Origin: a virus
Lineage: Duplodnaviria > Caudoviricetes
Reading direction: 5' to 3' (one strand)
IMG/VR virus record: IMGVR_UViG_3300016744_000001
DNA length: 64,000 nt
The notes beneath the pieces are model-generated. The model worked only from the letters and a program-made list of their open reading frames with translations, did no database searches and was not told the origin of the DNA. The position numbers were made by a program, and so were the translations under genes. Shown in pieces: positions 2,821-12,998 of the stretch. Numbering within the stretch: position 1 is the first letter of the stretch; every line of letters starts with the position of its first letter.

Positions 2821-2825
2821 TGACT

Positions 2826-2853
2826 ATCCCTGCTAGGCTATCCTAGCAGGGAT
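2826..2853. terminator. Hairpin between convergent genes
   Basis: ATCCCTGCTAGG-ctat-CCTAGCAGGGAT. Confidence 0.75.
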
Positions 2854-2857
2854 GTCT

Positions 2858-3206: not shown

Positions 3207-3283
3207 AACCTTGAACGTATGCTGTGGATCTTTACGACAATTCTTGATTGTATACAGAAATCTCTGCTAAAGAGGAGTGTTTG

Positions 3284-4408
3284 ATGAAAAGTCAACAGTT
3301 CATCTACGTTGATGCGCATCCAAAAGAACTGAAGGATGACTCGCAATATAAGTGTCTTGGTACCGTTGAGATCAGTGATGTGTTCTACACGGTTGAAGTG
3401 GATGGTCGCATCCAGCTCAAGCTGGTTACTTCTGCTCCGGGCTGGGCCAAGATTCTCAATGACTGTACACAATTTAACACCGAGACCATCTGCGCTGTTC
3501 TGATGGATACGGAAGATGTCACCATCGGTGACTCGTTCGAAGTCTTTCGTTTAATGGACAATGGACGCACTGAACTGAAAGAACAGGAGAACGAGTACTT
3601 CAACCTCAGTGCCAAGGATGATGAGAACCATCTGGTCTTTCGTTGGCGGTTGAAATCAAGGTATCATGGTGACCCTGAAAAGCACACCACCCGAACGGCC
3701 TCTGTCGTCTATGGACCTCGGTTCTGCCCAATCTGTGGGGAGGAGCTGGACATTGATGAAACGATCGGTGATCCCATCTGTCCGAATAGTAACTGCCGAA
3801 TCTACAAGTATCTGGCGATTACTCGTTTCTTAAATGTCGCTTGCAGGTTGCCACAGCATCAACGGTTTGGTCGTCTCCTTGTTGACCATCAAGTGATTGG
3901 GTCAACAGCGGATATTTTCGAAGTGCTTTCCAGCAAGAAGTCCTTGCTTCAGCAGTACGGAAATCCACAGTACGTCAAAACGTTTATTGACGACCTGTCA
4001 TCAATCAAAGGAACAATCACTCTCGCTGACTGGGTGAACTCCCTTCCGACACTGCGTCATGACTTCTACATGGTGGAGAAACCGCTTGTCAAGATCTGTC
4101 AACCCGCCGGCAATGTTGTCAATCTGAAGAACTACCTGTGTGCAACTGCGCTCAACAAGGATTTTGGGAGTAACCCAGTAAACCTCGTGAACTGGGTGGA
4201 CGACTTGTTCAGTGATGTCATCTATGCTGATGACACTACTGAATTTGCAGATTGGCGGGAATCCCAAACGAAGAAGATCTTGAAGTACATGTCGGTTCCT
4301 GTCTTCTTCAGCCTTGCAGAAGTTTTCAACTATGGCCATCCGTCAGAAGAAGACTATCCCACAACATTGGAAAAGCTCCAACGTCTTGGAGTATTCAAAA
4401 CCAGTTAG
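3284..4408 (+). CDS. NAD+-dependent DNA ligase-derived protein (OB fold + C4 zinc finger + HhH-like region; no adenylation domain)
   Basis: DVFYTVEVDGRI..CTQFN..DVTIGDSFEVFR resembles the LigA OB domain; CPICG..CPNSNC resembles the LigA Zn finger; LVDHQVIGSTADIF resembles the HhH region; no KxDG; GAGGAG RBS. Confidence 0.65.
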   Translation: MKSQQFIYVDAHPKELKDDSQYKCLGTVEISDVFYTVEVDGRIQLKLVTSAPGWAKILNDCTQFNTETICAVLMDTEDVTIGDSFEVFRLMDNGRTELKEQENEYFNLSAKDDENHLVFRWRLKSRYHGDPEKHTTRTASVVYGPRFCPICGEELDIDETIGDPICPNSNCRIYKYLAITRFLNVACRLPQHQRFGRLLVDHQVIGSTADIFEVLSSKKSLLQQYGNPQYVKTFIDDLSSIKGTITLADWVNSLPTLRHDFYMVEKPLVKICQPAGNVVNLKNYLCATALNKDFGSNPVNLVNWVDDLFSDVIYADDTTEFADWRESQTKKILKYMSVPVFFSLAEVFNYGHPSEEDYPTTLEKLQRLGVFKTS

Positions 4409-4458: not shown

Positions 4459-4567
4459 AACATTGTGGTCCTGTCAGGAAAGTAAATCTATACTTCTTGG
4501 TGGTATCACATGCTGTTAACAGCGGTATGGTTTATCAACACAAACACTTTCCATGGAGAACAGAGTC

Positions 4568-5095
4568 ATGAGTACCGAAAAAATCGCCAGCAATGATCCC
4601 AACCGTATTGAAGCCCTTTCCAAGAAAATGCGCGAAGGCGCCACCGTGGCCGCCCCCGAAAAGGGCAAAGAACACATTGCTGAGCTTGAAGTTCCCGAAG
4701 CTATCATCCTTGAAGCCCTTGGCGAACGCGGCATCACGCGTGACCAGATCAAAGAAGTCGCCACCGGCGTCGTCGAACTGACCCGCGCTGCCCATCACTG
4801 CGCCACCGTGCACAACATCGATCGCATCAAAACCGCCGTCAAATCCAAGACCGATCCCCGCAACTTCGAAACCCGTGTGTCCGGCAATGTCGGCCGCTCC
4901 CTGCAGATCAACGCCTCGTCCAAAGCCATGCGCGAAGGCGAAATCACCACGCCTACCGGTGAAAAGAAATCCTACCGCACCTTCGGCACCGGCAAGGGTC
5001 AGGCAATCATGGGCGGTGGCCTTGGTGCCGCCATGTCCAGCGACCTGGCTGAAAAAGTCAAGAACGCCTTCGACGGCTGCGAATACCTGAAGTAA
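4568..5095 (+). CDS. Hypothetical protein, probably highly expressed early protein
   Basis: GGAG RBS; strong C-ending codon bias like the capsid gene; own promoter and hairpin. Confidence 0.8.
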   Translation: MSTEKIASNDPNRIEALSKKMREGATVAAPEKGKEHIAELEVPEAIILEALGERGITRDQIKEVATGVVELTRAAHHCATVHNIDRIKTAVKSKTDPRNFETRVSGNVGRSLQINASSKAMREGEITTPTGEKKSYRTFGTGKGQAIMGGGLGAAMSSDLAEKVKNAFDGCEYLK

Positions 5096-5114
5096 GCGCC
5101 CTTCCCCGGCACGT

Positions 5115-5150
5115 GTACCACCCTGCAGCTGCTTGGCTGCAGGGTGGTAC
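5115..5150. terminator. Hairpin
   Basis: GTACCACCCTGCAGC-tgcttg-GCTGCAGGGTGGTAC. Confidence 0.75.
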
Positions 5151-5247
5151 TATCTACTTAAACATGTGAATGAAATTTTTTCTACCGATATATCACTGCT
5201 CAGGATACCATCCTCAACATTTTAACATTACCTAAAAAGGATCTATC

Positions 5248-5880
5248 ATGAGCACCGCAGACTTCAGCAAACTGCTTCCTGTCATCCGTGAACTTGAAGC
5301 AATGGATTGGGCAGAACGTGCCTTGATCGCCAAGGCCATCAACCACATCAACATGCAGGTCGACTTGATTGTCGACTACCCCAAGCTTGAAGAGCTGGAA
5401 GAACGCTTCGCGCAGCACCTTGAAAGTCGCCAGATCAGCGACATCCTCACCGGCCGTCTCCCACTGGACCAGGTCAACGACGAACTGTTTGAAAAGCTCG
5501 GCAAGGACCCCAGGTTTGAATACCTGCTGATCGAGCGGTTCAAGCAGCTTGGCATCAACCTCAACGACCACGAAGGTCTCCTTGACCGCTGGGTCAACAG
5601 CGACAACCGTGATGCCATGGTCACCCACACCACGGGTATCCCCAGCCATGGTGAAAACAGTGGCATCCCCATCGAAGACTCCAACAACTTCGCGATCCCG
5701 CCGACTGAGCATTCGCTCATGACAGCTGACAGCGCTGCGCAGACTGAAGGGTCTGTGCAGAGCGCTGATCCCGCCGGCAATCCGGTGACCATCGTTGGTG
5801 CTGAACAGGTCAGCACCACGGCTTCTGCCACCACTGACATCAACACCCGGACCGCAAATCGGCATTCCGGAAAAAAATAG
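5248..5880 (+). CDS. Hypothetical acidic protein; possible -1 frameshift extension to 6083
   Basis: AAGGA RBS; TATATCAC promoter variant at 5189; ends GGA AAA AAA TAG. Confidence 0.75.
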   Translation: MSTADFSKLLPVIRELEAMDWAERALIAKAINHINMQVDLIVDYPKLEELEERFAQHLESRQISDILTGRLPLDQVNDELFEKLGKDPRFEYLLIERFKQLGINLNDHEGLLDRWVNSDNRDAMVTHTTGIPSHGENSGIPIEDSNNFAIPPTEHSLMTADSAAQTEGSVQSADPAGNPVTIVGAEQVSTTASATTDINTRTANRHSGKK

Positions 5881-5932
5881 CCGGGGATAGGAATGGCCGA
5901 CCTCGTGCTCGGCACTTCCGGTCTCCGTCCCC
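5871..5932 (+). other. Candidate -1 programmed ribosomal frameshift signal
   Basis: In-frame A_AAA_AAA heptamer before TAG; GC-rich stem-loop 5883-5932; -1 frame open to TAG at 6081-6083. Confidence 0.55.
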
Positions 5933-6094
5933 TATGAGAAAAACCGCAGTAGCGGAGACACCTGCGGATGACGCAGTTGATCACCAGACTACCAACTCTG
6001 TGGTTGACAATTGCGCATCAAACAAACTTCAAGTGGATTCGGTCCCAGCGATCGATCCCTCCTTGCTGGATTGTGGAACGTAGTGCACTACAAA

Positions 6095-6128
6095 CATCTG
6101 GGTACCAGGATTTCCTGGTACCCAGATG
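6095..6128. terminator. Hairpin between convergent genes
   Basis: CATCTGGGTACCAGGA-tt-TCCTGGTACCCAGATG. Confidence 0.75.
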
Positions 6129-6129
6129 G

Positions 6130-6828
6130 CTACGTCAAGTAAGGCGATTTATATTTACATTTCTTCAACAACTTCTTCACAGTCTTTGTAAAGGAAGTCA
6201 TCCGTGGTTCCAATACTTTTGCATCCAGCATTGGTTTCCACAACTTTGAAAAGGTAAAGCCAATGCTTATCGCATCAATGCTGTGTTCTGTGAACAAAGC
6301 ACTGTCAGGCATTTTACCTACTTTAAACCCACGAAAGGTTATTTCTTTTTGTTGTACACGACAGTTAAGTGCCGTGGTCATATCGTCTTTTGTCGCTTTA
6401 CCACCAAGCTCATGTGACATCACTTTCTTGATCAATGTGGGTGGAGTTTTGAATACTCGCGCTGTCACTGGATCAATGAGTATACCTTCTTCATACATTC
6501 CGTGTAAGGTTGATTCCATCGCGTAGATGGCAATCAGCAACGAAATAAATGCATTTGGACGAGAAGGATTGTAGAACGCATCTTCACTAGCGATGTAGTC
6601 TGGTTTGTACATCATCACCAATTCTCGAATTGTTCTACCTATTACCTTACCACACAGTACTCGATCTGAGTACCACTTGTGGTCTTTACGATACCTGCTT
6701 TCTTTTGGGTAAGCAGATGGGTAAAGTGTGTTATGCTCAAATACTTCAAAATTGTTATCAGTGACTTGACTAAACGCATACCCAAAGGAATTAGTTCCCG
6801 GGTCAATTGATAAAACTGTATAGGTCAT
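6130..6828 (-). CDS. ruvC: RuvC-like Holliday junction resolvase
   Basis: VLSIDPGTNSFGYA, IASEDAF, KATKDDM, SIDAISIG acidic catalytic pattern. Confidence 0.85.
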   Translation of the reverse strand: MTYTVLSIDPGTNSFGYAFSQVTDNNFEVFEHNTLYPSAYPKESRYRKDHKWYSDRVLCGKVIGRTIRELVMMYKPDYIASEDAFYNPSRPNAFISLLIAIYAMESTLHGMYEEGILIDPVTARVFKTPPTLIKKVMSHELGGKATKDDMTTALNCRVQQKEITFRGFKVGKMPDSALFTEHSIDAISIGFTFSKLWKPMLDAKVLEPRMTSFTKTVKKLLKKCKYKSPYLT

Positions 6829-12927: not shown

Positions 12928-12964
12928 TCCACTGACCCTCTCCTTTTGGGAGAGGGTCAGTGGA
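12928..12964. terminator. Hairpin between convergent genes
   Basis: TCCACTGACCCTCTCC-ttttg-GGAGAGGGTCAGTGGA. Confidence 0.75.
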
Positions 12965-12998
12965 TTCATCTTGCGATGATTTTTTTTTCAGTCAGTTG

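Follow-up and report, generated by a model that had tools for sequence, protein, structure and literature searches.

A probable programmed -1 frameshift at the end of a small gene in an uncultured phiKZ-like jumbo phage and its diverged relatives

Introduction

The closest described counterparts of the element analysed here, a slippery heptamer at the end of a gene for a 210-amino-acid (aa) protein in a 64,000-nucleotide (nt) stretch of viral DNA (IMG/VR record IMGVR_UViG_3300016744_000001; henceforth, the window), are found in bacterial, phage and insertion sequence (IS) genes. In the dnaX gene of Escherichia coli, a heptamer of A-rich lysine codons (A_AAA_AAG) followed by a hairpin a few nt downstream yields two isoforms, tau and gamma, which have the N-terminal part in common and are distinguished by a partner-binding part at the C-terminus, the shifted product being the shorter one through an immediate stop in the -1 frame. 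Phage lambda encodes its G/GT tail assembly chaperone between the genes for the tail tube and the tape measure; there, a minority of the molecules gain a folded T domain through a -1 shift late in the short open-reading frame (ORF). Gene 10 of phage T7 (10A/10B), the major capsid gene, shifts near its stop codon at a G_GUU_UUC site with distant 3′ stimulators and gains a short extension of 53 aa, and the transposases of IS1/IS3-family elements make use of A_AAA_AAC or A_AAA_AAG heptamers with a nearby 0-frame stop and downstream structure. Annotated phage recoding is largely confined to tail-chaperone genes, and no paper on frameshifting in phiKZ-like phages was found in the literature.

The window lies inside a 273-kb metagenomic contig. 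In its relatives, the corresponding gene block has a PhiKZ-type major capsid gene nearby, and the window is on this basis assigned to an uncultured phiKZ-like jumbo phage. In this work we describe, at the 3′ end of one of its small genes, a sequence layout that probably directs programmed -1 ribosomal frameshifting, and we compare it across diverged relatives. The corrected gene model comprises proteins of 210 and 278 aa where gene callers give a 250-nt "gap" or a spurious small ORF, and places recoding in a non-structural, probably early, gene family. The C-terminal motif obtained by frameshifting alone provides a handle for finding the partner of the protein, and the family constitutes a well-controlled example for training recoding predictors.

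Sequences and analysis

Relatives of the locus were gathered as independent assemblies through protein searches and contig look-ups. Those carrying the gene family fall into the window clade (L001, L002, L005 and L003) and the lineages L006, L007/L008, L017, and L018 with L014/L015; the last two contigs continue L018, from one sample and with a 17-nt end overlap. A further lineage comprises more distant genomes without the frameshift family. A generic scan looked for ORFs of at least 80 codons ending in an in-frame A6N heptamer, with a stop no more than 3 codons further on and at least 40 open codons in the -1 frame.

Results

A first-pass annotation of the window had proposed a -1 frameshift from a canonical arrangement of heptamer, spacer and structure, and each of these elements was recovered. 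The heptamer, in the correct register, and the ORF end GGA AAA AAA TAG lie exactly at 5871-5880; the stem-loop at 5883-5932 begins 5 nt after the heptamer and folds with a minimum free energy of -24.9 kcal/mol; and the -1 frame, devoid of a start codon of its own, remains open for 68 codons up to the stop at 6081-6083, just ahead of a hairpin at 6095 (Table 1). The stem-loop is built from GGGGA...TCCCC with inner GGAA/TTCC and GCCGA/TCGGC pairings, and the -1 frame reads IAGDRNGRPRARHF...PSLLDCGT, being entered at 5877 as IAGDRNG...IDPSLLDCGT. Runs of seven A or T occur at 3 loci in the window, against 18.5 expected, and the one in the heptamer is the sole A7 on the sense strand within a coding region; of the other two loci, one is an intergenic T9 and the other a T7 that lies on the coding strand close to where a minus-strand gene starts. 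The T9 run (12980-12988), which is the only other long homopolymer on the + strand, sits between two gene ends, 14 nt past a 17-bp hairpin. The generic scan returned one match in the window, considering both strands, and one per related locus, as opposed to zero in nine distant control loci.

The complete layout is present in every genome with the family: A_AAA_AAN in frame, a 0-frame stop next to it, a stem starting 4-6 nt further on and an open -1 frame. At least 10 independent assemblies from different samples share the out-of-frame arrangement. Protein identity to the window within its clade is 58% (L001/L002/L005) and 53% (L003), and identity of the N-terminal domain across lineages goes down to 18-25%. 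Conservation in related phages had been put forward in the first-pass annotation as a check on its proposal, and the heptamer, the adjacent stop and the stem spacing are all kept in these strongly diverged lineages. The 0-frame ORF ends in ...NNA AAA AAA TAG throughout the family, with the exception of L017 (TCA AAA AAT TGA), where the run is reduced to six A's and the heptamer becomes A_AAA_AAU. The length of the A run thus takes values of 6, 7 or 8 across relatives while the frame relation stays constant, and the 0-frame stop (TAG in five lineages, TGA in L017) always adjoins the heptamer. The codon preceding the lysine codons ends in A in every lineage (GGA, TCA, GAA, GAA, TCA), the encoded residue being Gly, Ser or Glu; as read from sequence, this invariant A before two lysine codons is what tandem slippage would require.

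The stems downstream of the heptamer are G-rich/C-rich and entirely different in sequence between lineages, with arms GGAA..GCCGA/TCGGC..TTCC in the window, TGTGCC.GCT/AGC.GGCACA in L006, GGGGACGTAG/CTACGTCCCC in L007 and GGGAGGG..GGTC/GACC..CCCTCCC in L017. Their folding energies, next to that of the window, are -27.8 (L003), -22.5 (L006), -24.7 (L007), -23.5 (L017) and -10.9 kcal/mol (L018), and one compensatory pair, a full G-C to A-U exchange, is observed in the stem of the window clade. In all six sequences the stem starts 4-6 nt after the heptamer, in agreement with the canonical spacing of approximately 5-9 nt. A Shine-Dalgarno-like element (AGGA, GGGAG, GAGG or AAGGA-like) is present upstream of the heptamer in L001, L007, L018 and L017, and is absent at a distance of about 10-14 nt in the window, L003 and L006.

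The -1 frame behaves as a coding sequence. It contains no stop codons over 68-88 codons in every lineage (extension lengths of 68, 70, 79, 87 and 88 codons), as against 3-7 in each of the other two frames. The nucleotide sequence of the extension is beyond alignment across lineages, and the encoded peptide begins with I-x-G-D in four of them. All extensions carry near their end a [ILV]DPxLxDxG motif, which appears as LDPSLIDTGV in L006, IDPRTLDG..FDTGT in L007, LDPQLADLGL in L014 and VDPLDDQLSDVGL in L017, and which occurs a single time in the six-frame translation of the window. BLASTP aligns the window and L006 extensions at corresponding positions with an expectation (E) value of 0.003, and the L017 and L014 extensions are similar with an E of 2e-8. 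Within the window clade, the ratio of nonsynonymous to synonymous divergence (dN/dS) of the extension is 0.23-0.31 and third codon positions are in excess, making up 17 of its 33 variable sites.

There is no conserved start codon for the extension: five lineages have ATA as the codon that overlaps the stop, the first in-frame ATG of the window (5934) is not preceded by a Shine-Dalgarno sequence and is missing from L006 and L007, and L007 presents neither ATG nor GTG near the site. No fused single-ORF homologue was found in protein sets of 5.8 billion and 1.8 billion sequences; a profile search of 1.8 billion cluster representatives recovered four clusters only, each of which (176-204 aa) terminates at the shift site, and querying with the extension yielded no protein of greater length. 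Read-through of the TAG was discarded (the 0 frame closes after 18 codons and is not conserved), as was an alternative genetic code (the long ORFs of the window are intact under table 11). Four syntenic ORFs (L009, 214 aa; L011, 366 aa; L013, 251 aa; L016, 298 aa) were likewise rejected as fused homologues, given that their profile similarity is not significant, the sole match being an 18-32-residue "DPRFE"-type (DP(R/E)F) stretch with E 0.01-0.02. These single ORFs of 214-366 aa, with low-complexity tails and no A run, occupy in distant relatives the slot between the genes for an HU-like and a RuvC-like protein. Automatic gene calls of the extension are inconsistent, illustrating how recoding escapes annotation: a GTG start at codon 5 in L006 (4743-4943, -), a TTG overlapping the stop in L017 (3037-3303, +) and an opposite-strand ORF, probably spurious, in L007 (1595-1789, +).

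Table 1. Features of the frameshift locus and its surroundings. Positions refer to the window, except for the slot ORFs, which are given in their own loci.
Feature	Position	Strand	Remarks
LigA-C-terminal-like gene	3248-4408	+	386 aa; weak match to TIGR00575
HU-like gene	4568-5095	+	175 aa; upstream neighbour
Promoter-like motif TATATCAC	5189-5196	+	One mismatch to phiKZ-type TATATTAC; "cga" 5′ context alike
0-frame ORF, short isoform (210 aa)	5248-5880	+	ATG at 5248; ends GGA AAA AAA TAG
N-terminal helical domain, residues 1-125	5248-5622	+	Predicted symmetric homodimer
Slippery heptamer A_AAA_AAA	5871-5877	+	X_XXY_YYZ register in the 0 frame
-1 frame extension, 68 codons and stop	5877-6083	+	Stop 6081-6083; long isoform 278 aa
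0-frame stop TAG	5878-5880	+	Directly 3′ of the heptamer ("shifty stop" position)
Candidate stimulatory stem-loop	5883-5932	+	Begins 5 nt after the heptamer
Near-invariant 108-nt block	5919-6026	+	2 variable sites among 5 sequences, neither synonymous
C-terminal peptide motif IDPSLLDCGT	6051-6080	+	Family consensus [ILV]DPxLxDxG
Perfect 15-bp hairpin	6095-6128	.	Between convergent gene ends, 12 nt past the -1 stop
RuvC-like gene	6130-6828		Convergent, downstream of the frameshift gene
Slot ORF, L009	4744-5388	- in locus	Poly-Ser tail
Slot ORF, L011	4773-5873	- in locus	
Slot ORF, L013	3735-4490	- in locus	
Slot ORF, L016	1912-2808	- in locus	

Conservation of the extension within the window clade also has a nucleotide-level component. 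Nucleotide identity is 88-99% in the extension versus 66-75% in the gene body, and synonymous divergence (dS) is 0.13-0.39 versus 1.1-2.2 in the N-terminal domain; the conservation is therefore partly exerted on nucleotides, and the coding signal is mixed in part with constraints on RNA or DNA. The near-invariant block listed in Table 1 contains a 21-bp G.U-rich hairpin (5967-6019), in which the alifold consensus keeps the pair at variable site 6006 (U-A or U-G) and assigns 5971 to a bulge, and a third hairpin at approximately 6035-6059 forms through different perfect 7-bp stems in L001 and L003. Such a pattern suggests either that the RNA is constrained over a stretch that also codes for protein, or that recombination has acted locally. 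Patches of similar identity are found elsewhere in the alignment, for instance near 600 and 4500, and because of them we do not propose 5919-6026 as a new RNA family; an Rfam search over 5700-6250 at permissive E-values gave noise only.

Neither the 210-aa protein nor its extension has a meaningful match in Pfam, PHROG or NCBIfam. The AlphaFold2 model of the 210-aa monomer shows helices up to residue 118, the rest having a predicted local distance difference test (pLDDT) score below 50, and no fold search was made with it because of its low overall confidence (pLDDT 52.7); look-alikes of the N-terminal domain in the ESM Atlas all had template modelling (TM) scores below 0.5 and were unusable. 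The short isoform is thus predicted, with modest confidence, to consist of a helical N-terminal domain (residues ~1-120) and a disordered linker (120-210). Prediction of a two-copy complex of residues 1-125 gave an interaction score from aligned errors (ipSAE) of 0.68 versus 0.01 for the best of 3 controls; among proteins of solved structure, 20 of 30 one-chain pairs and 1 of 23 single chains reached the mark on this score. The dimer models agree across runs in at least 98% of contacts, with pLDDT of at least 71, and their interface spans residues 5-58, including a conserved W-A-E-R stretch. These models support dimerisation of the N-terminal domain. The extension tail appears to be a mostly disordered stretch, and the short motif at its end may, by analogy with known systems, be of a docking type.

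The transcription signals around the gene follow the order promoter-like motif, gene, extension and terminator hairpin, which fits the proposed recoding. The phiKZ promoter consensus TATATTAC (Table 2 of PMC7058600) occurs 7 times in the window versus 0.38 expected, always on the + strand (3199, 4451, 32624, 48930, 50841, 59040 and 61594) and often with "cga" or "tga" as 5′ context, and these copies probably mark a set of early transcription units. A promoter-like copy, cgaTATATCAC, sits 52 nt 5′ of the ATG, and relatives display ATATATCAC or ATATATTAT at the corresponding upstream place. The term "early protein" used in the first-pass annotation is plausible from this one-mismatch motif. On the 3′ side, the hairpin at 6095-6128, conserved with compensatory changes in L001, L003 and L005, is likely a bidirectional terminator ending the frameshift transcript. 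Gene-end hairpins in the window (2825-2854, 5120-5150, 6095-6128 and 12928-12964) are perfect, with 13-17 bp and 3-4-nt loops, and are followed by interrupted, T-rich tails (e.g. TACTATCTACTT) instead of U runs; terminator-like sites with T tracts show no enrichment in the window (20 found versus 18.6 expected).

The site had been described as lying outside the usual tail-chaperone position, and its neighbours bear this out, being LigA-C-terminal-like, HU-like and RuvC-like, with no PHROG match to a chaperone. The 386-aa protein resembles weakly the C-terminal part of the NAD-dependent ligase LigA (TIGR00575, E 0.0011, profile positions 386-473), and no adenylation domain was detected in it. 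The 175-aa protein has a high-confidence predicted fold (pLDDT 89) of HU/IHF-like shape; PDB matches to HU are weak (4dky, probability 0.96, E 0.1), and BFVD provides clear matches to uncharacterised proteins of Noxifer (E 1.7e-4) and PhiEaH1 (E 1.3e-3), as well as Eowyn, with weaker ones in KTN4 (E 0.011) and Psa21 (E 0.019). It is kept even in distant relatives without the frameshift gene and, based on its modelled fold, is possibly a histone-like DNA-binding protein of jumbo phages. Taken together, this DNA-metabolism-like neighbourhood fits, without proving, a DNA-associated role for the frameshift gene. A GC-rich island at 4500-6100 (53-60% GC, with A- and C-rich strand skew, versus ~43% on either side) coincides exactly with the HU-like and frameshift genes, and is not obviously common to the AT-rich L017 and L018.

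Among cultured phages, a DNA-level search of 50,697 records yielded zero close relatives of the locus, and tblastn with the 210-aa and upstream 175-aa proteins gave no match. The RuvC-like neighbour has distant cultured-phage matches only (PhiEaH1, vB_Ea277G and AgentSmith); the two of these phages that were examined, PhiEaH1 and AgentSmith, present neither synteny nor the frameshift cassette. IMG/VR scans by protein, protein alignment and a conserved 27-mer returned no relative, and nine distant RuvC-like IMG/VR loci lack both the cassette and the C-terminal motif. A scan for transfer and transfer-messenger RNA genes found none.

Discussion

The conserved heptamer, stop, spacing and stem, together with the open -1 frame and its C-terminal motif, support the recoding proposed in the first-pass annotation, and from sequence comparison we consider it likely that a programmed -1 ribosomal frameshift operates at the 3′ end of this small phiKZ-like jumbo-phage gene, itself probably early. 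The majority of ribosomes would decode ...GGA AAA AAA and terminate at the adjacent UAG, releasing the 210-aa protein. A fraction of them would be held by the stem-loop 5 nt downstream, and possibly also by slow termination at the adjacent stop, and would slip back one base on A_AAA_AAA, since the lysine tRNAs can re-pair perfectly there; translation would then resume as AUA GCC GGG GAU... for 68 more codons, giving the 278-aa protein. The adjacent stop matches the "shifty stop" context reportedly described by Weiss et al. in 1987, and could add a kinetic pause. Both isoforms would share the helical N-terminal domain with its predicted dimerisation, with the motif tail on the long form alone, so that homo- and heterodimers would contain subunits with and without the motif in a proportion fixed by the frameshift. 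On the model of G/GT and tau/gamma, the short [ILV]DPxLxDxG peptide may dock a partner. No member of the family is known other than in frameshifted form, and the two-isoform arrangement therefore appears to be necessary for function rather than an accident.

Several observations weigh against ribosomal frameshifting. The hairpin of the window reaches a z of just -1.85 versus dinucleotide shuffles, and that of L018 is weak both in energy and in z (-0.9). An upstream Shine-Dalgarno enhancer of the dnaX type is found in just ~4 of 7 sequences. In E. coli A_AAA_AAA is less shifty than A_AAA_AAG, although this may not hold for the present host. Synonymous divergence in the window clade is 4-8 times lower in the extension than in the N-terminal domain. 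Finally, five of six lineages have an uninterrupted homopolymer of 7-8 A, on which a slipping polymerase would generate the identical product, and read on the minus strand the stem is followed by UA and U7-8, resembling an intrinsic terminator.

One alternative, which we regard as unlikely, is transcriptional slippage, whereby the phage or host RNA polymerase would add an A on the A7 run and a minority of A8 mRNAs would encode the same 278-aa fusion. Phages of the phiKZ type use their own non-canonical RNA polymerases, which counts in its favour, and the avoidance of A7 elsewhere in the window fits a polymerase mechanism as well as a ribosomal one. Productive slippage sites, however, usually consist of at least 9 A or T, and L017 has just six A's, a poor run for polymerase slippage yet a valid heptamer for tandem slippage. 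The X_XXY_YYZ register, the adjacent stop and the stem at 4-6 nt are ribosome-specific features that a polymerase would have no need of. Three traits thus favour the ribosome over the polymerase: a run of just A6 in L017, a codon register kept exactly, and a stem conserved at a spacing appropriate for the ribosome.

An improbable explanation is that the extension constitutes its own ORF, translated by its own initiation or by termination-reinitiation where the stop overlaps, with the A run and stem forming an intrinsic terminator on the minus strand that would shield the early gene from antisense transcription running on from the convergent RuvC-like gene. The small-ORF gene calls at TTG in L017 and at GTG codon 5 in L006, together with an ATG at codon 5 in L018, agree with separate initiation, but no start is conserved and every lineage has the -1 frame open right from the heptamer. 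As for termination, the evident terminators of this phage are long perfect hairpins without a T run, T7 runs are rare, and a strong hairpin (6095-6128) already stands between the convergent genes; moreover, a terminator role leaves unexplained both the codon register of the A run and the conserved ORF devoid of a start. The minus-strand stem might serve as a terminator in addition to promoting a ribosomal frameshift.

More improbable still is a structured non-coding RNA or 3′ untranslated element within which the open -1 frame goes untranslated. The lack of synonymous changes in 5919-6026 within the clade, its 21-bp hairpin with a preserved variable pair, and the third hairpin with different perfect stems in L001 and L003 are what such an element would display. 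No Rfam match was obtained, however, and the nucleotide sequences of L006, L007, L017 and L018/L014 are unrelated, yet their frame is open and the motif kept; RNA structure can, besides, coexist with coding. Lastly, homopolymers are prone to errors on some platforms, but it is effectively ruled out that a mistake in sequencing or assembly, or the recent breakage of a gene, conceals a single 278-aa A8 ORF, since the out-of-frame layout is shared among the independent assemblies with A6, A7 or A8 and no in-frame version appears in either of the large protein sets. The refuting condition set in the first-pass annotation, reads showing A8, is answered indirectly by these assemblies.

Returning to the ribosomal frameshift, the slippery run abuts the stop in every lineage, and the shift could therefore compete directly with release factor. 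A speculative extension of this idea, to which we attach a small chance of being right, is that the ratio of long to short isoform reports the translation state of the host early in infection. The RNA that codes for the extension is itself under strong selection at the nucleotide level in the window clade, and this structured RNA would, on the same reading, do a second job on top of coding: it would tune the shift, affect mRNA stability or be processed into a small RNA.

Compared with the systems outlined above, the locus combines a known mechanism with a new gene family. It shares with dnaX the A-rich heptamer of lysine codons, the hairpin a few nt downstream, a bacterial-type ribosome and two predicted isoforms with a common N-terminal part and a distinct, putatively partner-binding C-terminus. 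It departs from dnaX in that the shifted product is the longer one and it is the 0 frame that stops at once, in the last base of the heptamer (A or U instead of G), in the inconsistent upstream Shine-Dalgarno-like element, and in that the 210-aa protein has no AAA+ ATPase clamp-loader domains (no Pfam, PHROG or NCBIfam match). Like lambda G/GT, the shift near the end of the short ORF would extend a minority of molecules that share an N-terminal domain able to co-assemble (here, a predicted dimer), and the arrangement is conserved while the sequence is not; unlike G/GT, there is no sequence or family relation, the gene lies in a DNA-metabolism-like neighbourhood with an early-type promoter motif and not between tail tube and tape-measure, and the extension appears to be a disordered tail with a short motif and not a folded domain. 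The resemblance to T7 gene 10 resides in a -1 shift near the stop, a short extension (68 aa here) and a location outside the tail-chaperone context, and the difference in a gene not assigned to the capsid, an A run and a local hairpin. IS1/IS3-family transposases offer the same A6N heptamer, nearby 0-frame stop and downstream structure, the A_AAA_AAU of L017 resembling the A6C of IS1, but nothing at the present locus shows transposase domains or terminal repeats. The family described here is therefore placed outside those of dnaX, G/GT, T7 gene 10 and the IS elements.

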